NCBI RefSeq assembly: GCF_053078305.1
Contig: NZ_CP166879.1
Direction: 5' to 3' (one strand)
DNA length: 64,000 nucleotides
Below, piece by piece: positions 4,317 to 23,555 of this stretch. The notes below the pieces were generated by a model. The model was not told where the DNA came from and ran no database searches. It was given only the letters and a program-made list of their open reading frames with translations. How positions within the stretch are numbered: position 1 is the first letter of the stretch; every line of letters starts with the position of its first letter. The position numbers and the translations under genes were made by a program.

Positions 4317-5612
<1,296 letters not shown>

Positions 5613-11799: not shown

Positions 11800-12128
11800 C
11801 TATTTGTTAGTGAATAAAAGGTTGCCTGTAAAATTACAAAAACCTTACGCAGCGTCAAGCGGAATCGTGTCAATCATTGCGACAAATCAATCCTGTGCCT
11901 AAGCATTACGCGACTGACTCGCCTCACTCTTCCTTTGGGCTTGAGACCACATGGGGTCGGCGCCCCGAATTTTAAAGGGCAATTACGATAAAAATGTGAT
12001 TTTCATCACGATTTAGGTGCAGCCATTTCGTCGAGATCAAGTTTAGGACAAAATTTTGCCAGTTGGTGTTAATGTTTTGTTAGAATCAGTCACGTAATGT
12101 GAGCACGATTAAAGTGAGATGTGAGCAA

Positions 12129-12542
12129 ATGGCTAATAAACCTTCGGCAGAAGAACTGAAAAAAAATTTGTCCGAGATGCAGTTTTACGTGACGCAGAAT
12201 CATGGGACAGAGCCGCCATTTACGGGTCGTTTACTCCATAACAAGCGTGACGGCGTATATCACTGTTTGATCTGCGATGCCCCGCTGTTTCATTCCCAAA
12301 CCAAGTATGATTCCGGCTGTGGCTGGCCCAGTTTCTACGAACCGGTGAGTGAAGAATCCATTCGTTATATCAAAGACTTGTCACATGGAATGCAGCGCAT
12401 AGAAATTCGTTGCGGTAACTGTGATGCCCATCTGGGGCATGTCTTCCCTGACGGGCCGCAGCCAACGGGCGAACGTTATTGTGTTAACTCTGCTTCTTTA
12501 CGCTTCACTGATGGTGAAAACGGCGAAGAAATCAACGGTTGA
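12129..12542 (+). CDS. msrB: Peptide methionine-R-sulfoxide reductase MsrB (137 aa)
   Basis: Internal ATG at 12129 gives [12 protein letters not shown]... with the two CxxC zinc motifs (CLICDAP, CGNCDAH). Confidence 0.9.
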
Positions 12543-12583
12543 AAAAACGATTCAGCAACTTATTCCACAGGAGCGGAAAAATT

Positions 12584-12856
12584 ATGAATCTTGATGACAT
12601 TATCAACAGCATGACGCCTGAGGTATACCAGCGTTTGTCGACCGCTGTTGAACTGGGGAAATGGCCTGATGGCGTTGCGTTGACCGAGGAACAAAAAGAG
12701 AACTGCCTGCAACTGGTAATGCTGTGGCAAGCCCGCAATAATACCGAAGCACAGCATATGACAATTGACACAAATGGTCAGATGGTCATGAAGAGCAAAC
12801 AGCAGTTAAAAGAAGATTTTGGTATCTCAGCAAAGCCTATTGCCATGTTTAAGTAA
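12584..12856 (+). CDS. yeaC: DUF1315 protein YeaC (90 aa)
   Basis: ATG at 12584 preceded by a CAGGAG Shine-Dalgarno; MNLDDIINSMTPEVYQ... Confidence 0.8.
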   Translation: MNLDDIINSMTPEVYQRLSTAVELGKWPDGVALTEEQKENCLQLVMLWQARNNTEAQHMTIDTNGQMVMKSKQQLKEDFGISAKPIAMFK

Positions 12857-13225
12857 GTGGTTCATCCCCTTTTTGCCGCGGCTATGAAGGGGATAGCCAA
12901 CAATGACCCCACGACTCATCTCAATTATCTCGCCATGACCTGGCTAAGTCCCAGTCCGATCTCTTGCCGTCGCGTTCACGCCTGAATGACTTCTCCTGAA
13001 CTTAAGTCTCAGACCTATTTGGCCGGTAATCCCTCTCAAATTTGCTCCTTTTGCGTTCCGCCTTCCATCAACCTGTAACAGAACCAGCCATTTTTTGCGT
13101 AATTGTGATCTGAGTTGTAAAACGCAGATCATTATCTGTGTTTTACAGATTTAATGTTGACCTCAAAAATCATGTGGGTAAGTATGATGACCATCTAAGC
13201 AAAACAAAACACAGAGGATGACGCA

Positions 13226-14302
13226 ATGAAAGCACTGGCTCGGTTTGGCAAGGCCTTTGGCAGCTACAAGATGATTGATGTCCCACAACCCATGTGTGGC
13301 CCGGAAGATGTAGTGATTGAAATTAAAGCCGCGGCAATCTGCGGCGCAGACATGAAGCACTACAATGTCGATAGCGGTTCTGATGAGTTTAACTCTATCC
13401 GCGGCCATGAGTTCGCAGGTTGTATTGCGCAGGTTGGTGAAAAAGTCAAAGACTGGAAAGTGGGGCAACGCGTCGTGTCGGATAACAGCGGTCACGTTTG
13501 CGGCGTTTGTCCGGCCTGTGAACAGGGTGATTTTCTGTGTTGTACAGAAAAAGTAAACCTTGGTCTGGATAACAATACCTGGGGCGGTGGTTTTTCCAAA
13601 TATTGTCTGGTTCCTGGTGAAATTCTCAAAATTCATCGTCATGCCTTGTGGGAAATCCCTGATGGTGTTGATTATGAGGACGCAGCCGTACTTGACCCTA
13701 TCTGTAATGCCTACAAATCCATCGCGCAGCAATCGAAATTCCTTCCTGGTCAGGATGTGGTCGTCATCGGCACTGGCCCACTCGGGTTGTTCTCCGTACA
13801 AATGGCGCGGATTATGGGGGCGGTAAATATCGTCGTCGTTGGTCTGCAAGAAGATGTGGCGGTCCGCTTCCCGGTTGCAAAAGAACTGGGTGCGACGGCA
13901 GTAGTAAATGGTTCTACCGAAAATGTGGTGGCGCGCTGCCAGCAAATATGTGGCAAAGACAATCTGGGACTGGTGATTGAATGCTCCGGTGCCAATATCG
14001 CATTGAAACAAGCCATCGAAATGCTCCGCCCGAACGGGGAAGTGGTACGCGTTGGAATGGGCTTCAAACCTCTTGATTTCTCGATTAATGACATTACCGC
14101 CTGGAACAAAAGCATCATTGGGCATATGGCCTATGACTCAACCTCATGGCGTAACGCTATCAGGCTATTAGCCAGCGGCGCTATCAAAGTCAAACCGATG
14201 ATCACGCATCGTATCGGCCTGTCGCAATGGCGCGAAGGGTTTGATGCGATGGTCGATAAAACCGCAATCAAAGTGATCATGACTTACGACTTTGATGAAT
14301 AA
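13226..14302 (+). CDS. ydjL: Zn-dependent medium-chain alcohol/polyol dehydrogenase YdjL (358 aa)
   Basis: 358-aa ORF with a GHEFAG zinc-binding motif and a GTGPLG Rossmann motif. Confidence 0.9.
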   Translation: MKALARFGKAFGSYKMIDVPQPMCGPEDVVIEIKAAAICGADMKHYNVDSGSDEFNSIRGHEFAGCIAQVGEKVKDWKVGQRVVSDNSGHVCGVCPACEQGDFLCCTEKVNLGLDNNTWGGGFSKYCLVPGEILKIHRHALWEIPDGVDYEDAAVLDPICNAYKSIAQQSKFLPGQDVVVIGTGPLGLFSVQMARIMGAVNIVVVGLQEDVAVRFPVAKELGATAVVNGSTENVVARCQQICGKDNLGLVIECSGANIALKQAIEMLRPNGEVVRVGMGFKPLDFSINDITAWNKSIIGHMAYDSTSWRNAIRLLASGAIKVKPMITHRIGLSQWREGFDAMVDKTAIKVIMTYDFDE

Positions 14303-14328
14303 CAACTTTCCTGAAGGAACGTTATCGC

Positions 14329-15708
14329 ATGGAACAGATAACAAAACCGCATTGTGGTGCACGGCTGGATCGCTTACCGGATTGCCGCTGGCATTCATCA
14401 ATGTTTGCCATCGTCGCGTTTGGCTTGCTTGTCTGCTGGAGTAATGCCGTTGGTGGCTTGATCCTCGCGCAGCTGAAAGCGTTGGGCTGGACAGATAATT
14501 CCACCACAGCCACATTCTCAGCAATCACGACCGCCGGAATGTTTCTCGGTGCGCTGGTGGGCGGCATCATTGGCGACAAAACCGGTCGCAGAAATGCGTT
14601 CATCCTCTATGAGGCCATTCATATTGCCTCGATGGTTGTCGGTGCTTTCTCACCGAATATGGATTTCCTTATTGCCTGCCGTTTTGTGATGGGAGTTGGG
14701 CTGGGAGCTTTACTGGTTACGCTGTTTGCTGGTTTCACCGAATATATGCCCGGTAGAAATCGTGGAACGTGGTCAAGTCGGGTTTCCTTTATTGGCAACT
14801 GGTCATATCCGCTCTGTTCATTGATAGCGATGGGACTCACGCCGCTGATTAGTGCAGAGTGGAACTGGCGGGTACAACTGCTTATCCCTGCAATATTGTC
14901 GCTTATCGCTACGGCGCTGGCCTGGCGCTACTTTCCTGAATCCCCGCGCTGGCTGGAATCGCGCGGACGGTATCAGGAAGCCGAGAAAGTCATGCGGAGT
15001 ATAGAAGAAGGCGTCATACGCCAGACAGGTAAACCTTTGCCGCCCGTGGTTATTGCTGATGACGGTAAAGCACCACAAGCGGTGCCATATTCAGCCTTAC
15101 TGACAGGAGTATTACTGAAACGCGTGATATTAGGCTCTTGTGTGCTGATTGCCATGAACGTTGTGCAGTACACACTAATTAACTGGTTGCCAACGATATT
15201 CATGACCCAGGGGATTAATTTAAAAGACTCGATTGTTTTAAATACCATGAGTATGTTTGGCGCGCCATTTGGCATTTTTATTGCCATGCTGGTGATGGAT
15301 AAAATTCCGCGTAAAACAATGGGTGTGGGGCTATTAATCCTGATTGCGGTGCTCGGATATATCTATTCACTGCAAACCAGCATGTTGCTCATAACGTTGA
15401 TTGGTTTCTTCCTGATTACTTTCGTCTATATGTACGTTTGCTATGCCTCGGCAGTGTATGTCCCTGAGATCTGGCCGACAGAGGCCAAACTCCGTGGCTC
15501 CGGTCTGGCGAATGCGGTAGGGCGAGTCAGTGGTATTGCCGCACCTTATGCCGTTGCAGTGCTGCTCAGTAGTTATGGCGTTACGGGAGTCTTTATTCTT
15601 CTGGGGGCGGTTTCAATTATTGTCGCAATTGCTATCGCCACCATTGGAATCGAAACCAAAGGTGTCTCCGTTGAAAGTTTAAGTATTGATGCAGTAGCCA
15701 ATAAATAA
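14329..15708 (+). CDS. ydjK: MFS-family sugar transporter YdjK (459 aa)
   Basis: 459-aa polytopic membrane protein, recognised as YdjK. Confidence 0.9.
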   Translation: MEQITKPHCGARLDRLPDCRWHSSMFAIVAFGLLVCWSNAVGGLILAQLKALGWTDNSTTATFSAITTAGMFLGALVGGIIGDKTGRRNAFILYEAIHIASMVVGAFSPNMDFLIACRFVMGVGLGALLVTLFAGFTEYMPGRNRGTWSSRVSFIGNWSYPLCSLIAMGLTPLISAEWNWRVQLLIPAILSLIATALAWRYFPESPRWLESRGRYQEAEKVMRSIEEGVIRQTGKPLPPVVIADDGKAPQAVPYSALLTGVLLKRVILGSCVLIAMNVVQYTLINWLPTIFMTQGINLKDSIVLNTMSMFGAPFGIFIAMLVMDKIPRKTMGVGLLILIAVLGYIYSLQTSMLLITLIGFFLITFVYMYVCYASAVYVPEIWPTEAKLRGSGLANAVGRVSGIAAPYAVAVLLSSYGVTGVFILLGAVSIIVAIAIATIGIETKGVSVESLSIDAVANK

Positions 15709-15724
15709 TACGGGTGGATTCAAA

Positions 15725-16768
15725 ATGAAAAATTCAAAAGCAATATTGCAGGTGCCGGGCACAATGAAAATTATTTCAGCAGAAATACCAGTGCCTAAAG
15801 AAGATGAAGTTTTGATTAAAGTAGAATATGTCGGTATTTGTGGTTCAGATGTACATGGTTTTGAATCAGGTCCGTTTATTCCGCCTAAAGACCCAAATCA
15901 AGAAATTGGCCTGGGTCATGAATGCGCCGGGACGGTTGTGGCTGTGGGAAGCCGCGTGCGCAAATTTAAACCGGGGGATCGGGTAAATATCGAACCTGGC
16001 GTTCCTTGCGGTCACTGTCGTTACTGTCTGGAAGGCAAATATAACATCTGCCCGGACGTTGATTTTATGGCGACACAACCCAACTACCGCGGCGCATTAA
16101 CGCACTATCTGTGTCATCCGGAGAGCTTTACTTACAAACTGCCCGACAATATGGACACGATGGAAGGGGCGCTGGTGGAGCCTGCCGCAGTCGGGATGCA
16201 TGCCGCGATGCTGGCAGATGTTAAACCGGGTAAGAAGATAATTATTCTGGGAGCGGGTTGTATTGGTTTGATGACGTTGCAAGCGTGCAAATGCCTGGGA
16301 GCAACGGAAATTGCCGTCGTTGATGTGCTGGAAAAACGTCTGACAATGGCGGAACAGCTTGGTGCGACAGTGGTTATTAACGGCGCAAAAGAAGACACTA
16401 TTGCACGCTGTCAGCAATTTACCGAAGACATGGGCGCAGATATTGTTTTCGAAACAGCGGGTTCTGCGGTCACCGTTAAACAGGCACCTTATCTGGTAAT
16501 GCGCGGCGGTAAAATTATGATTGTTGGTACTGTACCCGGCGATTCGGCAATCAATTTCCTCAAAATCAATCGCGAAGTCACTATCCAGACGGTATTCCGC
16601 TATGCCAATCGTTATCCGGTCACGATTGAAGCTATTTCTTCAGGGCGATTCGATGTGAAATCGATGGTGACACATATTTACGATTACCGTGATGTACAAC
16701 AGGCATTTGAAGAGTCGGTTAACAACAAACGCGACATTATTAAAGGCGTTATTAAAATTAGCGATTAA
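15725..16768 (+). CDS. ydjJ: Zn-dependent alcohol dehydrogenase YdjJ (347 aa)
   Basis: 347-aa ORF with GHECAG and GAGCIG motifs. Confidence 0.9.
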   Translation: MKNSKAILQVPGTMKIISAEIPVPKEDEVLIKVEYVGICGSDVHGFESGPFIPPKDPNQEIGLGHECAGTVVAVGSRVRKFKPGDRVNIEPGVPCGHCRYCLEGKYNICPDVDFMATQPNYRGALTHYLCHPESFTYKLPDNMDTMEGALVEPAAVGMHAAMLADVKPGKKIIILGAGCIGLMTLQACKCLGATEIAVVDVLEKRLTMAEQLGATVVINGAKEDTIARCQQFTEDMGADIVFETAGSAVTVKQAPYLVMRGGKIMIVGTVPGDSAINFLKINREVTIQTVFRYANRYPVTIEAISSGRFDVKSMVTHIYDYRDVQQAFEESVNNKRDIIKGVIKISD

Positions 16769-16788
16769 TTAATACGGGAGAACAGAAC

Positions 16789-17625
16789 ATGCTCGCAGAT
16801 ATCAGATATTGGGAAAACGATGCCACAAATAAACATTATGCAATTGCCCATTTTAACGTATGGAATGCAGAAATGTTGATGGGCGTTATCGACGCAGCCG
16901 AAGAAGCGAAATCCCCGGTTATTATTTCTTTTGGTACAGGTTTTGTCGGCAACACCTCATTTGAAGATTTCTCTCACATGATGGTATCAATGGCACGAAA
17001 AGCAACTGTGCCGGTAATAACTCATTGGGATCATGGTCGGAGTATGGAGATTATTCATAACGCCTGGACTCATGGTATGAATTCATTAATGCGTGATGCT
17101 TCCGCATTTGATTTCGAAGAAAATATTCGTTTAACCAAAGAGGCTGTTGATTTCTTCCATCCGCTGGGTATTCCGGTAGAGGCGGAATTAGGGCATGTCG
17201 GTAATGAAACCGTTTATGAGGAAGCTCTGGCGGGCTATCACTATACCGATCCTGACCAGGCGGCTGAATTTGTTGAACGTACGGGCTGTGACTCATTGGC
17301 TGTCGCCATCGGCAACCAGCATGGGGTTTATACGTCAGAGCCACAATTGAACTTTGAGGTCGTCAAACGCGTACGCGATGCCGTGTCTGTTCCGCTGGTT
17401 TTGCATGGCGCATCGGGGATCAGTGATGCCGACATTAAAACTGCAATTTCGTTAGGTATCGCGAAAATCAACATCCATACGGAGCTCTGTCAGGCCGCAA
17501 TGGTCGCAGTGAAAGAAAACCAGGATCAGCCTTTCCTGCATTTAGAACGTGAAGTACGTAAAGCTGTAAAAGAACGGGCATTGGAAAAAATTAAACTGTT
17601 CGGTTCTGATGGCAAAGCGGAATAA
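16789..17625 (+). CDS. ydjI: Class II ketose-bisphosphate aldolase family protein YdjI (278 aa)
   Basis: 278-aa ORF, recognised as YdjI. Confidence 0.9.
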   Translation: MLADIRYWENDATNKHYAIAHFNVWNAEMLMGVIDAAEEAKSPVIISFGTGFVGNTSFEDFSHMMVSMARKATVPVITHWDHGRSMEIIHNAWTHGMNSLMRDASAFDFEENIRLTKEAVDFFHPLGIPVEAELGHVGNETVYEEALAGYHYTDPDQAAEFVERTGCDSLAVAIGNQHGVYTSEPQLNFEVVKRVRDAVSVPLVLHGASGISDADIKTAISLGIAKINIHTELCQAAMVAVKENQDQPFLHLEREVRKAVKERALEKIKLFGSDGKAE

Positions 17626-17629
17626 TGAT

Positions 17630-18577
17630 ATGGATAATCTCGACGTTATTTGTATAGGTGCCGCTATTGTTGATATTCCATTGCAACCGGTCAGTAAAAA
17701 TATCTTTGATGTGGATTCTTATCCTCTTGAAAGAATCGCAATGACCACCGGGGGTGATGCAATAAATGAAGCAACAATTATTTCTCGTCTGGGCCATCGT
17801 ACAGCATTAATGAGTCGTGTTGGTAAAGATGCCGCAGGACAATTTATTCTCGACCATTGCCGCAAAGAGAATATTGATATTCAAAGCCTGAAACAGGACG
17901 TCAGCATAGATACCTCTATTAACGTTGGACTGGTGACGGAGGATGGCGAGCGGACGTTTGTCACAAACCGTAACGGCAGTCTGTGGAAATTGAATATTGA
18001 CGATGTTGATTTTTCGCGGTTTTCTCAGGCGAAATTATTATCACTGGCCAGTATTTTCAACAGTCCTCTATTGGATGGTAGAGCGCTAACAGAAATTTTT
18101 ACGCAAGCTAAAGCCCGGCAGATGATTATCTGTGCCGATATGATCAAACCGCGGTTGAATGAAACGCTGGATGATATTTGCGAAGCATTGAGTTATGTCG
18201 ATTATCTGTTTCCTAATTTTGCCGAGGCAAAATTACTCACCGGGAAAGAGAGACTGGATGAAATTGCTGACTGCTTTCTTGCGTGCGGCGTAAAAACGGT
18301 GGTGATTAAAACGGGTAAAGACGGCTGCTTTATCAAGCGTGGTGACATGACGATAAAGGTGCCAGCGGTCGCAGGAATAACCGCCATCGACACCATTGGC
18401 GCGGGCGATAACTTTGCTTCAGGTTTTATTGCGGCACTGTTAGAAGGCAAAAATCTGCGTGAATGCGCACGCTTTGCCAATGCAACGGCGGCTATCTCAG
18501 TTCTAAGCGTCGGTGCCACCACCGGTGTAAAAAACAGAAAGCTGGTCGAACAATTGCTGGAAGAATACGAAGGATAA
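17630..18577 (+). CDS. ydjH: PfkB-family sugar kinase YdjH (315 aa)
   Basis: Start at the ATG at 17630 (MDNLDVICIGAA...), 4 nt after the ydjI stop; GAGD motif near the C-terminus. Confidence 0.9.
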   Translation: MDNLDVICIGAAIVDIPLQPVSKNIFDVDSYPLERIAMTTGGDAINEATIISRLGHRTALMSRVGKDAAGQFILDHCRKENIDIQSLKQDVSIDTSINVGLVTEDGERTFVTNRNGSLWKLNIDDVDFSRFSQAKLLSLASIFNSPLLDGRALTEIFTQAKARQMIICADMIKPRLNETLDDICEALSYVDYLFPNFAEAKLLTGKERLDEIADCFLACGVKTVVIKTGKDGCFIKRGDMTIKVPAVAGITAIDTIGAGDNFASGFIAALLEGKNLRECARFANATAAISVLSVGATTGVKNRKLVEQLLEEYEG

Positions 18578-18586
18578 TGAAGGCAA

Positions 18587-19567
18587 ATGAAAAAGATACC
18601 TTTAGGCACAACGGATATAACGCTTTCGCGAATGGGTTTGGGGACATGGGCCATTGGCGGCGGTCCTGCATGGAATGGCGATCTCGATCGGCAAATATGT
18701 ATTGATACGATTCTTGAAGCCCATCGTTGCGGCATTAATCTGATTGATACTGCACCAGGATATAACTTTGGCAATAGTGAAGTTATCGTCGGTCAGGCGT
18801 TAAAAAAACTGCCCCGTGAACAGGTTGTAGTAGAAACCAAATGCGGCATTGTCTGGGAACGAAAAGGAAGTTTATTCAACAAAGTTGGCGATCGGCAGTT
18901 GTATAAAAACCTTTCCCCGGAATCTATCCGCGAAGAGGTAGAAGCCAGCTTGCAACGTCTGGGTATTGATTACATCGATATCTACATGACGCACTGGCAG
19001 TCGGTGCCGCCATTTTATACGCCGATCGCTGAAACTGTCGCAGTGCTTAATGAGTTAAAGGCTGAAGGGAAAATTCGCGCTATAGGCGCTGCTAACGTCG
19101 ATGCTGACCATATCCGCGAGTATCTGCAATATGGTGAACTGGATATTATTCAGGCGAAATACAGTATCCTCGACCGGGCAATGGAAAACGAACTGCTGCC
19201 GCTATGTCGTGATAATGGCATTGTGGTTCAGGTTTATTCCCCGCTAGAGCAGGGATTGTTGACCGGCACCATCACTCGTGATTACGTTCCGGGCGGCGCT
19301 CGGGCAAATAAAGTCTGGTTCCAGCGTGAAAACATGCTGAAAGTGATTGATATGCTTGAACAGTGGCAGCCACTTTGTGCTCGTTATCAGTGCACAATTC
19401 CCACTCTGGCACTGGCGTGGATATTAAAACAGAGTGATTTAATCTCCATTCTTAGTGGGGCTACTGCACCGGAACAGGTACGCGAAAATGTCGCGGCACT
19501 GAATATCAACTTATCGGATGCAGACGCAACATTGATGAGGGAAATGGCAGAGGCCCTGGAGCGTTAA
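18587..19567 (+). CDS. ydjG: Aldo-keto reductase YdjG (326 aa)
   Basis: 326-aa ORF of the aldo-keto reductase family, recognised as YdjG. Confidence 0.9.
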   Translation: MKKIPLGTTDITLSRMGLGTWAIGGGPAWNGDLDRQICIDTILEAHRCGINLIDTAPGYNFGNSEVIVGQALKKLPREQVVVETKCGIVWERKGSLFNKVGDRQLYKNLSPESIREEVEASLQRLGIDYIDIYMTHWQSVPPFYTPIAETVAVLNELKAEGKIRAIGAANVDADHIREYLQYGELDIIQAKYSILDRAMENELLPLCRDNGIVVQVYSPLEQGLLTGTITRDYVPGGARANKVWFQRENMLKVIDMLEQWQPLCARYQCTIPTLALAWILKQSDLISILSGATAPEQVRENVAALNINLSDADATLMREMAEALER

Positions 19568-19703
19568 ATACTCAACACGATTCACCTCTGTTTCTGTGAA
19601 AACTGTGATGAAAATCTGTGATTCAAACAGGTTATTTTGAAAGTAAACATCGGTTATGCGATAATCGCGCTAATGTGATGTAAAAAGATACAGGGGTGTA
19701 ATC

Positions 19704-20462
19704 GTGGCGGCAAAAGACAGGATTCAGGCAATTAAGCAAATGGTTGCCAACGATAAAAAGGTGACAGTCTCAAATTTGAGTGGGATTTTTCAGGTAACCG
19801 AAGAAACCATTCGCCGCGATCTTGAGAAGCTGGAAGATGAAGGCTTTTTGACCAGAACCTATGGTGGTGCTGTTTTAAATACAGCGATGTTGACGGAGAA
19901 TATCCATTTTTATAAGCGCGCTTCATCGTTTTATGAAGAGAAGCAGCTTATTGCACGCAAGGCACTACCCTTTATCGACAATAAAACCACCATGGCAGCC
20001 GATTCCAGTAGTACCGTAATGGAATTGCTCAAATTGTTACAGGACCGTAGTGACCTGACGTTGCTAACCAACTCGGCGGAAGCGATTCATGTTCTGGCTC
20101 AGTCAGAAATTAAAGTCGTTTCAACGGGTGGGGAACTAAACAAAAATACACTTTCACTGCAAGGAAGAATTACTAAAGAGATCATCAGCCGCTATCATGT
20201 CGATATCATGGTAATGAGTTGTAAAGGTCTTGATATTAACAGCGGCGCGCTGGACTCTAATGAAGCGGAAGCTGAAATCAAAAAGACAATGATCCGTCAG
20301 GCGACAGAAGTTGCGTTATTGGTTGATCACTCTAAGTTTGATCGCAAAGCTTTTGTCCAGTTAGCTGACTTTAGTCATATTAATTACATAATAACTGATA
20401 AATCACCGGGTGCAGAGTGGATAGCATTTTGCAAAGACAATAATATCCAGCTGGTGTGGTAA
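19704..20462 (+). CDS. ydjF: DeoR-family transcriptional regulator YdjF (252 aa)
   Basis: GTG-initiated 252-aa ORF; an N-terminal helix-turn-helix region followed by a sugar-binding domain. Confidence 0.9.
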   Translation: MAAKDRIQAIKQMVANDKKVTVSNLSGIFQVTEETIRRDLEKLEDEGFLTRTYGGAVLNTAMLTENIHFYKRASSFYEEKQLIARKALPFIDNKTTMAADSSSTVMELLKLLQDRSDLTLLTNSAEAIHVLAQSEIKVVSTGGELNKNTLSLQGRITKEIISRYHVDIMVMSCKGLDINSGALDSNEAEAEIKKTMIRQATEVALLVDHSKFDRKAFVQLADFSHINYIITDKSPGAEWIAFCKDNNIQLVW

Positions 20463-20579
20463 TTTAAGCACACGTTGTCAATATTATTTGTTCCTGCGCC
20501 TGGAAATAAAATGATGATAAAGATGCGGCAAGTGAATTTGCCGCAATTGCTACCTTTTTTAGCAAATCCGAGGCACCCA

Positions 20580-21938
20580 ATGGAACAATATGATCAAATT
20601 GGCGCAAGACTGGACCGCTTGCCTTTGGCCCGGTTTCATTATCGTATATTTGGTATTATAAGCTTTAGTCTGTTATTAACAGGGTTTTTGAGTTACTCCG
20701 GTAATGTCGTCTTAGCAAAGCTGGTAAGCAATGGATGGTCAAATAATTTCCTCAATGCCGCCTTTACCTCGGCATTAATGTTTGGTTATTTCATCGGCTC
20801 TCTTACCGGTGGGTTCATCGGTGATTACTTTGGGCGGCGCAGGGCGTTTCGCATAAATCTTCTCATCGTCGGTATTGCTGCAACAGGGGCCACTTTTGTC
20901 CCTGATATGTACTGGCTCATCTTCTTTCGCTTCCTGATGGGAACAGGAATGGGTGCGCTGATTATGGTTGGCTATGCCTCATTTACGGAGTTTATCCCCG
21001 CGACGGTGCGTGGAAAATGGTCCGCGCGGCTCTCATTTGTTGGTAACTGGTCGCCCATGCTGTCTGCGGCGATAGGTGTGGTGGTTATCGCTTTTTTTAG
21101 TTGGCGGATAATGTTTCTGCTGGGTGGTATTGGCATACTGTTAGCCTGGTTTCTTTCAGGTAAATACTTTATTGAGTCGCCACGATGGCTGGCAGGGAAA
21201 GGGCAAATCGCAGGTGCAGAAAGCCAACTTCGTGAAGTAGAGCAGCAAATTGAAAGAGAGAAGAGTATTCGTTTACCCCCGCTTACTTCGTATCAGAGCA
21301 ACAGCAAGGTTAAAGTAATCAAGGGTACTTTCTGGCTCCTGTTTAAAGGTGAAATGTTACGACGTACATTAGTCGCGATTACTGTTTTAATTGCAATGAA
21401 CATTTCGCTTTATACCATCACCGTATGGATACCGACCATATTTGTTAACTCCGGCATTGATGTCGATAAATCAATATTAATGACCGCTGTTATTATGATT
21501 GGCGCTCCGGTAGGAATATTTATTGCGGCATTAATTATTGATCATTTTCCTCGTCGGTTATTTGGCTCCACCTTACTTATTATTATTGCCGTGTTAGGCT
21601 ATATCTATTCAATTCAGACTACAGAGTGGGCGATTTTAATCTATGGCCTGGTGATGATCTTCTTTTTATACATGTATGTTTGCTTCGCGTCGGCGGTTTA
21701 TATCCCGGAGCTTTGGCCAACGCATTTACGCCTGCGCGGTTCGGGTTTCGTTAATGCCGTCGGACGGATCGTCGCAGTCTTCACGCCCTATGGCGTTGCG
21801 GCATTATTAACACATTATGGGTCGATCACGGTGTTTATGGTACTTGGTGTCATGTTATTGCTCTGTGCGCTGGTTCTCTCCATTTTTGGCATCGAAACGC
21901 GGAAGGTGTCGTTGGAAGAGATTTCTGAGGTGAATTAA
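20580..21938 (+). CDS. ydjE: MFS-family transporter YdjE (452 aa)
   Basis: Track ORF 20475..21938; start chosen at the ATG at 20580 (MEQYDQIGARLDRLP...) to give 452 aa. Confidence 0.85.
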   Translation: MEQYDQIGARLDRLPLARFHYRIFGIISFSLLLTGFLSYSGNVVLAKLVSNGWSNNFLNAAFTSALMFGYFIGSLTGGFIGDYFGRRRAFRINLLIVGIAATGATFVPDMYWLIFFRFLMGTGMGALIMVGYASFTEFIPATVRGKWSARLSFVGNWSPMLSAAIGVVVIAFFSWRIMFLLGGIGILLAWFLSGKYFIESPRWLAGKGQIAGAESQLREVEQQIEREKSIRLPPLTSYQSNSKVKVIKGTFWLLFKGEMLRRTLVAITVLIAMNISLYTITVWIPTIFVNSGIDVDKSILMTAVIMIGAPVGIFIAALIIDHFPRRLFGSTLLIIIAVLGYIYSIQTTEWAILIYGLVMIFFLYMYVCFASAVYIPELWPTHLRLRGSGFVNAVGRIVAVFTPYGVAALLTHYGSITVFMVLGVMLLLCALVLSIFGIETRKVSLEEISEVN

Positions 21939-21990
21939 ATCTTTCGTTGATGGCATCAATTGCCAGATGTGCCACTGACGTGTTTTATTT

Positions 21991-22021
21991 GGCCTACAAT
22001 GCCAGTACAGAATTGTAGGCC
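21991..22021. terminator. Hairpin between the convergent ydjE and pncA genes
   Basis: Perfect 10-bp inverted repeat GGCCTACAAT ... ATTGTAGGCC with an 11-nt loop, lying between the two stop codons. Confidence 0.45.
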
Positions 22022-22030
22022 AGCGTAAAA

Positions 22031-22528
22031 TTACCCCTGTGTCTCTTCCCAGTCTGCCAGCGTATATAGCGTTGCCCCAGCAGCTGACATCTCCATAAAC
22101 GCGTGCGCACTGTCCTGTGGCTGGATATTCACGCCACGACAACCATCGGTAATCACGTTTACCTTATAACCTAACTGTAACGCGTCCAGCACGGTAAACT
22201 TCACGCAATAGTCAGTAGCCAGGCCCATAACGATCAATTCATCGATTTCATGATCGCGTAACCAGTCATCGAGAGAGGTTTTCTGCCGACGGCCGTTATC
22301 AAAAAAGGCACTGTAACTGTCAACTAAAGGATTTTCGCCTTTATGGAACACCGCTGCGATCGCTTTTTGGTGCAGTAACGGATGTAATACCGCTTCACCG
22401 CGCGACTGGCACCAGTCAATCAGGCGGTTAGCGACATCCACCGTACTGTCACCTTCCGGCACGGCGAGCGCGCCACCAGCACAGAAATCATTTTGTAAAT
22501 CGACCAGTAACAGGGCGCGAGGGGGCAT
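22031..22528 (-). CDS. pncA: Nicotinamidase/pyrazinamidase PncA, shortened allele of 165 codons that lacks the central metal-binding loop
   Basis: Starts MPPRALLLVDLQNDFCAGG... and is preceded by an AGGAGA Shine-Dalgarno. The ORF jumps from ...QSRGEAV directly to LHPLLHQKAIAAVFHKG..., so the roughly 48-residue segment of the remembered 213-aa PncA is absent. See findings. Confidence 0.85.
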   Translation of the reverse strand: MPPRALLLVDLQNDFCAGGALAVPEGDSTVDVANRLIDWCQSRGEAVLHPLLHQKAIAAVFHKGENPLVDSYSAFFDNGRRQKTSLDDWLRDHEIDELIVMGLATDYCVKFTVLDALQLGYKVNVITDGCRGVNIQPQDSAHAFMEMSAAGATLYTLADWEETQG

Positions 22529-22538
22529 TGCAGTCTCC

Positions 22539-23555
22539 TTAATCATCCGGCGTCAGTTCGCCGCGCAGGTTTTGGCTCATGGCCTTGCGAATGGTTTCAG
22601 TATCCAGTTCCTGGCTAAGCAGGTAATGCAGTTTGGTTAGCGTGGCTTCTACAGTCATATCTGCACCGCCAATAACGCCAGCATGGGCGAGGGCGTTACC
22701 GGTGGCATAACCACCCATATTCACTTTACCGGACATACATTGTGTCAGGTTGACCACCACAATACCGCGATCGCTGGCTTCTTGTAATTCCTGCAGGAAG
22801 GCTTTGTTTTGTGGCGCATTACCCACGCCATATGAGCGCAGAATCAATGCTTTCACCGGTTGGCGCAGAAAATTGCGCACGACGTCAGCAGAAATCCCTG
22901 GATAAATCGTCACTACGCCAATTGGTTGTGGGGTGATTGGATGAACGATTAATTCCCCTTCACCGTGCGGGGCGGGTGGCGTATTCAAACGACGAATATG
23001 GATACCTGCTTCCAGTAACGGAGGAAGGTTTGGAGAGGCAAACGCATCAAAACCATCGGCATGGGCTTTGGTAGTGCGGTTGCCGCGATACAATCGGTTA
23101 TTGAAAAAGAGCGTTACTTCGTTGATCGGATAATTCGCCGCAACGTACAACGCATTCAGGAGATTAATTTGTCCGTCAGAGCGTAACTCAGCTAGCGGGA
23201 TTTGTGACCCTGTCACAATGACCGGTTTACCGAGATTTTCGAGCATGAACGACAGCGCAGAGGCGGTATACGCCATCGTGTCGGTGCCGTGCAGAATGAC
23301 AAAACCATCATAGTCGTCATAGTGCGCTTTAATATCTTCAGCAATATGCTGCCAGTCTTCCGGCGTCATATCTGAAGAATCCATCAGCGGCGTATATTCA
23401 TGAATGGTGAAATCTGGCATCTCCGGGCGATGGAATTCCGGCATCAGCGCCAGTTGGCGTTGTAGATGACCTGACACCGGAATATAACCCTGCTCGGAAC
23501 GCTGCATCCCGATGGTCCCGCCCGTGTAGGCAACGTAAATTGATTTCTTTTGCAT
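22539..23555 (-). CDS. ansA: Cytoplasmic L-asparaginase I (338 aa)
   Basis: Start at the internal ATG at 23555 (MQKKSIYVAYTGGTIGM...). Confidence 0.95.
   Translation of the reverse strand: MQKKSIYVAYTGGTIGMQRSEQGYIPVSGHLQRQLALMPEFHRPEMPDFTIHEYTPLMDSSDMTPEDWQHIAEDIKAHYDDYDGFVILHGTDTMAYTASALSFMLENLGKPVIVTGSQIPLAELRSDGQINLLNALYVAANYPINEVTLFFNNRLYRGNRTTKAHADGFDAFASPNLPPLLEAGIHIRRLNTPPAPHGEGELIVHPITPQPIGVVTIYPGISADVVRNFLRQPVKALILRSYGVGNAPQNKAFLQELQEASDRGIVVVNLTQCMSGKVNMGGYATGNALAHAGVIGGADMTVEATLTKLHYLLSQELDTETIRKAMSQNLRGELTPDD

Follow-up and report, generated by a model that had tools for sequence, protein, structure and literature searches.

The window analysed here, a 64,000-nucleotide stretch of contig NZ_CP166879.1, carries on its + strand eight co-directional open reading frames (ORFs) that occupy positions 13226 to 21938 (Table 1). 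A megablast search with positions 13000 to 22200 matched 5,425 of 5,426 complete Escherichia coli genomes. In the best of them (99.6% DNA identity), RefSeq names the genes ydjL, ydjK, ydjJ, ydjI, ydjH, ydjG, ydjF and ydjE, with msrB-yeaC on their upstream side and pncA-ansA on their downstream side; K-12 and the matching genomes are annotated in RefSeq with this same order between yeaC and pncA. An earlier note on this DNA had placed eight same-strand ydj genes here, and the ORF list and the RefSeq annotation agree on them. We consider it probable that they form a chromosomal carbohydrate-catabolic cluster of E. coli, with the pathway and regulation proposed below.

RefSeq start codons were used. 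The mechanical ORF list offers longer alternatives for ydjH (17609) and ydjE (TTG, 20475); the RefSeq start of ydjH is backed by the PDB sequence of YdjH, that of ydjE by a conserved Shine-Dalgarno sequence and ATG, and the GTG start of ydjF is conserved with its Shine-Dalgarno sequence in 14 species. With these starts, the gaps from ydjL to ydjG are 26, 16, 20, 4 and 9 nt, essentially the 4 to 27 nt given in the earlier note; ydjF and ydjE begin after longer gaps of 136 and 117 nt, respectively.

Table 1. Genes and sequence features of the ydj region (window coordinates)
Feature	Position	Strand	Description
ydjL	13226-14302	+	358 aa
ydjK	14329-15708	+	459 aa
ydjJ	15725-16768	+	347 aa
ydjI	16789-17625	+	278 aa
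ydjH	17630-18577	+	315 aa
ydjG	18587-19567	+	326 aa
ydjF	19704-20462	+	252 aa, GTG start
ydjE	20580-21938	+	452 aa
Conserved TTGTGATCTGAGTTGTAAAA block	13101-13122	+	possible CRP half-site TGTGA at 13105-13109; alignment of 16 Enterobacterales; low confidence
Palindrome	13115-13148	+	arms of about 14 nt, 4-nt centre; fold −18.4 kcal/mol, z = −3.3; right arm contains O1
O1, candidate YdjF operator	13135-13149	+	TCTGTGTTTTACAGA, exact TCTGTG-N4-ACAGA; ends 7 nt before the −35
Probable ydjL promoter	13157-13185	+	−35 TTGACC (13157-13162), 17-nt spacer, weak −10 AAGTAT (13180-13185)
O2, second exact dyad	13534-13548	+	TCTGTGTTGTACAGA, inside ydjL, 399 bp from O1
Two TCTGTG boxes	19590-19625	+	at 19593 and 19615, upstream of the ydjF promoter; candidate autoregulation sites
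ydjF promoter	19637-19665	+	TTGAAA, 17 nt, TG-n-GATAAT; best promoter-like site of the region (10 of 12), extended −10
ydjF-ydjE hairpin	20524-20545	+	8-bp stem; the 71 nt of 20500-20570 fold at −18.2 kcal/mol, z = −2.8
Probable ydjE intrinsic terminator	21945-21990	+	hairpin 21945-21980, then UGUUUUAUUU U-tract; 21939-22030 folds at −29.7 kcal/mol, z = −3.8
Presence/absence block	12855-21972	.	ydjL upstream region and the eight ydj genes, 9.1 kb; empty-site alignment

All eight ORFs are intact. Compared to K-12 MG1655 they differ by 80 nucleotides and 17 amino acids in total, with 1 to 5 residues per protein (YdjL 2, YdjI 1). Because only 17 of the 80 nucleotide differences alter an amino acid, the intact cluster appears to be under purifying selection. 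Locus, gene order and solved structures are those of the K-12 cluster, from which nothing of substance differs; the strain of the window belongs to another lineage, with about 99% DNA identity. The locus is real and conserved, not a chance arrangement, as the same gene order was found in 80 loci of other species.

The cluster was already known and partly characterised, with structures solved for YdjI, YdjH and YdjJ, and matches in Pfam, NCBIfam and PDB confirmed every gene identity and family assignment that had been proposed from the sequence. YdjL and YdjJ both have the ADH_N and ADH_zinc_N domains and are 28% identical in pairwise alignment, where ICGxD and GHE, of the Cys/His/Glu catalytic-zinc motif, and the four-Cys structural-zinc loop (CxxCxxC...C) are visible. 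They are Zn-dependent medium-chain dehydrogenases, neither of which reaches an equivalog cut-off in NCBIfam. YdjJ corresponds to PDB 5VM2 (780 bits), followed by a ketose reductase and by sorbitol, L-arabinitol and xylitol dehydrogenases. The closest curated family of YdjL is L-threonine 3-dehydrogenase, at a score below the cut-off, and no structure of its own was found in PDB. The description as polyol dehydrogenase is thus shown for the type of YdjJ only, YdjL being closer to threonine than to sorbitol dehydrogenase.

YdjI (PF01116, 298 bits; PDB 6OFU 'YdjI aldolase', 624 bits) scores 324.5 bits against TIGR00167, above its cut-off of 215.6, and is assigned to the class II, metal-dependent ketose-phosphate aldolases. 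It fails the NCBIfam equivalogs for fructose-bisphosphate aldolase (246 versus 343) and tagatose-bisphosphate aldolase (245 versus 384) and passes only the generic 'ketose-bisphosphate aldolase' subfamily model; because it falls below both equivalog cut-offs, its sequence places it in a separate aldolase subfamily. YdjH is a full-length PfkB protein (PF00294, 247 bits), recorded in PDB as 'sugar kinase ydjH' (3H49/3IN1, 679 bits), and reaches no specific-kinase equivalog in NCBIfam. The aldo-keto reductase YdjG scores 628.6 bits against the equivalog NF049922 MethglyxlRedYdjG (NADH-dependent methylglyoxal reductase), whose cut-off is 550; its nearest structures are B. subtilis GSP69 and IolS. 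YdjF combines an N-terminal HTH_DeoR domain (62.6 bits) with a C-terminal DeoRC sensor domain (167.8 bits), as in DeoR/GlpR regulators, and is listed among the uncharacterised DeoR regulators (PMC4797297). YdjK and YdjE, both with MFS_1 and Sugar_tr domains in Pfam, are paralogues with 43% identity; YdjE is TCDB 2.A.1.1.92.

To follow the cluster in other bacteria, YdjI was used to scan one genome per species, which gave 80 loci onto which the eight window proteins were mapped by tblastn. The 22 Enterobacterales loci (among them Escherichia, Citrobacter, Klebsiella, Raoultella, Yokenella, Budvicia and Enterobacillus) retain the order L-K-J-I-H-G-F-E, except that one ends at a contig edge and one has no ydjK match. 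The other 58, from Firmicutes, Actinobacteria, Synergistaceae and Gilliamella, read L-(K)-J-I-H-G-F on a single strand; carriers include Lachnospiraceae, Clostridium, Blautia, Veillonella, Megamonas, Anaerococcus, Erysipelotrichaceae, Atopobiaceae, Synergistaceae and Gilliamella. Identities to the window proteins in these 58 loci are unusually high, at 73-87% for YdjI, 68-86% for YdjL, 54-81% for YdjJ, 46-74% for YdjH, 58-69% for YdjG, about 31-62% for YdjF and 50-75% for YdjK, with ydjK present in 37 and a linked ydjF in 49. Identity of 73-87% between Proteobacteria and Firmicutes, together with the kept order, suggests horizontal spread of a functionally coupled unit. The fixed order across phyla also speaks against the possibility, left open in the earlier note, that the enzymes act in unrelated pathways.

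Clustering of all ORFs of the 58 loci, with family scans of representatives, revealed additional genes. A gene of the ribulose-phosphate 3-epimerase family (for instance L042:6479-7174, +) occurs in 31 of these loci, 30 times between ydjL and ydjK and once, in Megamonas (L049), between ydjG and ydjF. It is closest to the D-allulose-6-phosphate 3-epimerase AlsE of the D-allose operon, just below the equivalog cut-off (257 bits versus 271). Schaedlerella arabinosiphila DSM 106076 is one carrier of a cluster with this gene. A transporter of the SDF (sodium:dicarboxylate symporter) family is found in 30 of the 58 loci (L042:14464-15810, +; L066:7383-8723, +), mostly directly after ydjF, which is the place of ydjE in E. 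coli, and at the ydjK place in L062 and L066. Twelve non-enterobacterial loci, most of them without ydjK, have a LivHMGF-type ATP-binding cassette (ABC) system, and a Peripla_BP_6 binding protein is present in seven (six of these twelve plus L071). The SDF and ABC matches lie far below the family cut-offs. Members of both transporter families typically move organic or amino acids across the membrane, in agreement with an anionic substrate or product. None of the epimerase, SDF and LivHMGF ABC genes is present in the window, and the epimerase is in no Enterobacterales version. An energy-coupling factor (ECF) transporter beside the Blautia version occurred in a single locus and was not counted as part of the cluster. 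In 16 non-enterobacterial loci (L042:~5205-5235, +, and 15 others of Lachnospiraceae type), the leader that separates the promoter from the ydjL orthologue has a conserved palindromic hairpin, ACGTTTCCGGCCGGAAAACG; this hairpin has no counterpart in the window and could be an attenuator or a protein-binding site.

We then consider the control regions. In a comparison of 16 Enterobacterales, the alignable part of the ydjL upstream region is limited to about 110 nt next to the gene, sequences farther upstream being unrelated. The conserved part holds TTGTGATCTGAGTTGTGAAAT, the palindrome and the two promoter hexamers of Table 1, with GTTGAC and TAAGTAT conserved in the 16 species. Firmicutes have an equivalent made of TTGACA, a 17-nt spacer and a −10-like hexamer. 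Another promoter-like sequence, TTTACA-17-AAAAAT (13142-13170), is less conserved than TTGACC/AAGTAT and was rejected as the main promoter. In the literature, ydjLKJIHG is listed as CRP-activated (PMC8085971). Reading TGTGATCTGAGTTGTA as a CRP site gave a weak lead only, as its right half fits the consensus poorly and does no better in other species.

The palindrome's right arm contains the dyad that we call O1. At the equivalent place, Firmicutes loci have AAATCT(T/G)TGAAACA(C/A)AGAAAAT-AATTGACA, so that the 15-nt dyad TCTGTG-N4-ACAGA is common to both groups; the Firmicutes sites are often symmetric (TCTTTG...CAAAGA), the dyad being preserved. In 34 of 78 loci, the 250 nt preceding the ydjL orthologue contain the relaxed form TCTKTG-N4-AMAGA. 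Its background frequency in these loci is 0.004 per 250 nt, which gives an enrichment of about 100 fold among loci that are phylogenetically related. Of 35 sites, 25 are separated from the TTGA of the −35 by exactly 7 nt, in Enterobacterales and Firmicutes alike. Hexamers averaged 2.0 per 200 nt upstream when a ydjF orthologue was linked and 0.1 when it was not (8 loci), for a background of 0.29 (Mann-Whitney p = 5×10−5). Since Firmicutes share the dyad and are not known to have CRP, we propose TCTGTG-N4-ACAGA as a candidate YdjF operator. The recognition helix of YdjF, VTEETIRRDLEKLE, is invariant across phyla, but this is a signature of the DeoR family and was not retained as evidence for a shared operator.

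Over the 64 kb of the window, the + strand has just two sequences within one mismatch of the dyad, O1 and a second exact copy inside ydjL, O2; on the − strand, both are matched again with one mismatch, the pattern being nearly palindromic. The seven codons over O2 have a synonymous entropy of 0.14, compared to a gene mean of 1.02, and rank first of 352 in the eight genes aligned with 22 Enterobacterales orthologues, while the adjoining codons vary freely. The site is absent from the ydjL of Firmicutes. Because it combines an exact dyad with the strongest synonymous constraint, O2 is a candidate auxiliary operator. Repression by looping between several operators is known for DeoR and GlpR. The TCTGTG hexamers in ydjJ (16108), ydjH (17980, 18129) and ydjE (21862) were rejected as operators, as they show no synonymous constraint; they include a repeat matching 16 of 17 positions of the operator core, at 18118-18134. 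It was also observed that a sequence that overlaps the ydjL ribosome-binding site, AAAACACAGAGGATGA at 13206-13221, has 88% complementarity to the left side of O1 (13129-13144). It includes the half-site CACAGA within AAACACA(G/A)AGGA, conserved in Enterobacterales, and could serve the repressor as an additional half-site beside the core promoter.

A sequence scan found neither promoter-like nor terminator-like sites in the 4-26 nt gaps from ydjL to ydjG, and ydjLKJIHG is annotated as an operon in the literature (PMC6561318, PMC8085971). The ydjG-ydjF spacer is strongly conserved in 14 Enterobacterales, including CCTCTGTTTCTGTG, AAATCTGTGATTCA and both hexamers of the ydjF promoter, and its 12-mer TCTGTGATTCAA is also present upstream of the ydjL orthologue in locus L081. 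Instead of one transcription unit there are probably three: ydjLKJIHG, ydjE, and ydjF, the last with a conserved promoter of its own that is probably autoregulated. No terminator was found after ydjG, so that read-through into ydjF is possible. The ydjF-ydjE spacer is poorly conserved except for its hairpin and the ribosome-binding site; the stem is kept through compensating changes in other Enterobacterales, for example GCGGTAAA/TTTACCGC in Yokenella. The hairpin does not qualify as a canonical terminator. Positions 12000-23000, scanned against Rfam, gave a single, meaningless sub-threshold miRNA match. As an observation apart, a 33-nt direct repeat, 73% identical, links the ydjK/ydjJ junction (15695-15727) and the ydjJ/ydjI junction (16759-16791); it spans stop codon, ribosome-binding site and start codon (TAGC.A.TAA.TAATACGGG.G.A....A.ATG).

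Published observations bear on this regulation. The ydjLKJIHG promoter is turned on during transit through the healthy mouse gut, and a K-12 ydjL-promoter fragment drives expression there (PMC6561318). With the rho R66S mutation, a ydjL fusion was more than 2 fold up, which agrees with termination by Rho in the 5′ untranslated region or the ORF. In the regulation that we propose, ydjLKJIHG would form one operon with a weak promoter in need of activation, CRP or another activator offsetting the poor −10. YdjF would repress it through the TCTGTG/CACAGA dyads O1 and O2 until a pathway intermediate accumulates, and would also repress its own promoter. Effectors of DeoR regulators are in most cases phosphorylated intermediates.

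The proposed pathway starts with YdjK, which would import an acidic polyol or ketose. NAD-dependent YdjJ and/or YdjL would oxidise a polyol or aldonate to a 2-ketose with a negatively charged far end. YdjH would phosphorylate the 2-ketose, as K-12 YdjH does in vitro, and YdjI would cleave the resulting ketose-1-phosphate to dihydroxyacetone phosphate (DHAP) and an acidic aldehyde, in keeping with in vitro work on the K-12 enzyme. Huddleston, Raushel and colleagues reportedly found in 2019 that YdjH phosphorylates the C1 hydroxyl of 2-ketoses and that YdjI splits the 1-phosphate into DHAP and L-arabinuronate. NADH-specific YdjG would then reduce the acidic aldehyde, and the reduced acid may leave through a second transporter, YdjE in Enterobacterales or the SDF-family protein in Firmicutes. 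In the summary that PMC9602453 gives of Huddleston et al. (2019), YdjH and YdjI favour long-chain monosaccharides (2-ketoses) that end in a carboxylate. The succession of uptake, oxidation, phosphorylation and aldol cleavage put forward in the earlier note agrees with this in vitro work on the K-12 proteins, and its remark that the substrate is unsettled still holds.

Several points weigh against this pathway and its regulation. The literature searched names no natural substrate, and the best YdjI substrate, L-glycero-L-galacto-octuluronate, 'has no natural abundance' according to PMC9602453. The literature reached contains no activity report for YdjL, YdjJ, YdjK or YdjF, and methylglyoxal reduction is the sole demonstrated activity of YdjG (discussed in PMC6561318). 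For YdjE, the sole experimental hint comes from metabolomics of knockout and overexpression strains, which points to export of acetophenone and 3-phenyllactate (PMC10971958). The ydjE gene is present in all 22 Enterobacterales loci, and elsewhere weak ydjE-like matches (35-53% identity) occur in 5 loci. Because these weak matches are all there is outside Enterobacterales, ydjE appears as the weakest member of the proposed pathway and largely an enterobacterial add-on. The AlsE family, to which the epimerase of the Firmicutes versions is closest, acts on ketose 6-phosphates, which is awkward with a kinase working at C1. As for regulation, the case for the operator is one of conservation, and the kinship of the loci makes the counts overstate their independence; the boxes at the ydjF promoter moreover deviate from the spacing of the O1 dyad.

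The activity of YdjG could indicate that the cluster is mainly a unit for detoxification of aldehydes or methylglyoxal and for stress, rather than a catabolic one. Enrichment of ydj genes in lactic-acid-resistant E. coli (PMC9602453) and the salt tolerance reportedly raised by ydjK overexpression (PMC6561318) go in the same direction. We nevertheless find this highly improbable, as a sugar pathway is what one recognises in a kinase, a ketose-phosphate aldolase, a DeoR regulator and transporters whose order is maintained across phyla, and as YdjH and YdjI have specific sugar-acid activities (PMC9602453).

A different order of the same steps was also considered, in which YdjG acts first as an aldose reductase, YdjJ/YdjL re-oxidise the alditol to a ketose, and kinase and aldolase follow. 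One aldo-keto reductase with two medium-chain dehydrogenases is exactly the enzyme set of the fungal oxidoreductive pentose pathway, and YdjG, YdjJ and YdjL are kept together across phyla; the polyol dehydrogenases and ketose reductase closest to YdjJ in PDB would suit such a route. This order is unlikely in our view, since YdjG is NADH-specific by name and by prior work when aldose reductases usually depend on NADPH, and since the acid-type transporters and the carboxylate preference of YdjH and YdjI fit disposal of an acidic aldehyde at least equally well.

We also asked about a substrate in which a sugar or polyol is joined to an amino acid (Amadori or opine-like) instead of a free sugar acid. 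None of the loci has a linked deglycase or amidase, the transporter matches are, as said, distant, and good activity of YdjH and YdjI on free uronates is already described (PMC9602453), which makes such a substrate very unlikely. It would account for the amino-acid-type families of the alternative transporters (SDF; LivHMGF-like ABC with Peripla_BP_6), for the best score of YdjL being against threonine dehydrogenase, for a distant relationship of YdjH to fructoselysine 6-kinase (83 bits), for the shift of amino-acid derivatives in YdjE mutants (PMC10971958) and for the activity of the ydjL promoter in chow-fed mice (PMC6561318).

Among known systems, the gatYZABCDR cluster of E. coli (galactitol/tagatose-bisphosphate) resembles ydj in combining a class II aldolase with a Zn-dependent dehydrogenase and a DeoR repressor. 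Tagatose-bisphosphate aldolase models give YdjI 240-245 bits and GatD gives YdjJ 168 bits, all below equivalog cut-offs. In contrast to gat, ydj uses major facilitator superfamily (MFS) uptake and not a phosphotransferase system, has no GatZ partner, and contains a PfkB kinase that would act at C1 of a free ketose, two dehydrogenases and an aldo-keto reductase. In the sulfo-Embden-Meyerhof-Parnas pathway of E. coli (sulfo-EMP, yihOPSTUVW), a PfkB kinase phosphorylates a ketose whose far end is anionic, and an aldolase then yields DHAP and an anionic aldehyde, which an NADH reductase reduces for export; that cluster has a DeoR-family regulator and two transporters, with YihT a class I aldolase and YihU a beta-hydroxyacid dehydrogenase. 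The ydj enzymes are not orthologous to these, there is no isomerase in ydj, and two dehydrogenases feed its pathway; the likeness to sulfoglycolysis would be one of mechanism only and not of homology.

In the reading that we favour, the whole ydj unit would be a horizontally mobile module common to gut bacteria of several phyla. Going further, the module might have moved between phyla together with its promoter-operator cassette, O1 and O2 might mediate loop-type repression in Enterobacterales, and the pathway might harvest DHAP from an acidic ketose of the gut as in sulfoglycolysis, with excretion of the reduced acid by the second transporter. We regard this fuller picture as speculative and rather doubtful.

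We next turn to the distribution of the cluster within E. coli. At least 80% of 12000-23000 is covered in 4,265 of the 5,426 complete genomes (78.6%), which leaves about 21% without a complete block. From an evenly spaced sample of the ranking, about 20% of genomes keep just msrB-yeaC and pncA-ansA, a clean empty site. In one such strain, C2 (locus L002), yeaC and pncA are 160 nt apart; its spacer aligns with the window to 12854, at the yeaC stop, and resumes at 21973. The edges of the block are approximate, the left one (about 12855) lying inside the yeaC stop codon and the right one (about 21972) 34 nt past the ydjE stop. As these boundaries enclose both the ydjL control region and ydjE, we conclude that the entire block, from this control region to the last of the eight genes, is acquired or lost as one unit. 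The block has a GC content of 46.3%, versus 50.0% for the remainder of the window. The published prevalence of ydj by phylogroup (B1 29.9%, C 50%, A/B2/D/E 96.6-100%; PMC9602453) agrees with these counts. Two side observations concern the block: about 93 nt (L002:2356-2448) replace it in the empty site, between yeaC and the pncA-side hairpin, and match nothing in the ydj region of the window; and of the 5,454 places in E. coli genomes matching 13000-22200, 2 are on plasmids instead of chromosomes.

Disrupted copies were also found. In O157:H7, an element of the insertion sequence (IS) family IS3 splits ydjE (L085:8566-11237) and leaves ydjL through ydjF intact; in the river isolate KFu024 (L004:4726-10948), two IS1 copies have inverted and truncated ydjJ, ydjH and ydjE and removed ydjI. 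Such losses, the genomes lacking the block, the absence of a known growth phenotype and the weak ydjL −10 element could be taken to mean that the cluster is a decaying relic without current function in E. coli. With eight intact ORFs that differ from K-12 by few amino acids, conserved operators and promoters, and a ydjL promoter active in vivo (PMC6561318), we find that barely conceivable.

In the literature searched we found no account of the exact insertion/deletion boundaries of the block, of the conservation of gene order with promoter and operator across phyla, of the synonymous constraint at O2 within ydjL, of ydjE being for the most part an enterobacterial addition, or of the linked epimerase, SDF and ABC transporters, and no newer work naming the ydj substrate or the YdjF regulon. 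These points make the substrate question more directly testable, for one of the few multi-enzyme pathways of E. coli K-12 left without a known physiological substrate. The module is carried by Lachnospiraceae of the mouse and human gut and by Veillonella, Anaerococcus and Atopobiaceae (73-87% aldolase identity); its presence in many gut bacteria would therefore point to a nutrient for which many of them compete. The candidate operator offers an experimental handle, since YdjF or a YdjF-controlled reporter could be used to fish the inducer from gut contents, and natural presence or absence of ydj in E. coli supplies ready comparison strains.

Finally, the downstream neighbour pncA (nicotinamidase/pyrazinamidase; 22031-22528, − strand) has an in-frame deletion of 144 bp in the window, with its junction at 22388/22389. 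It takes away K-12 codons 48-95 (IASQDWHPANHG...DHCVQNSEGAQ) and leaves 165 aa instead of 213. In the best matches listed, out of 4,685 matching genomes, this junction aligns as two pieces with the extra 144 bp, and none of the matches listed is contiguous across it. Because the lost segment presumably includes metal-binding residues, the shortened PncA is probably inactive.

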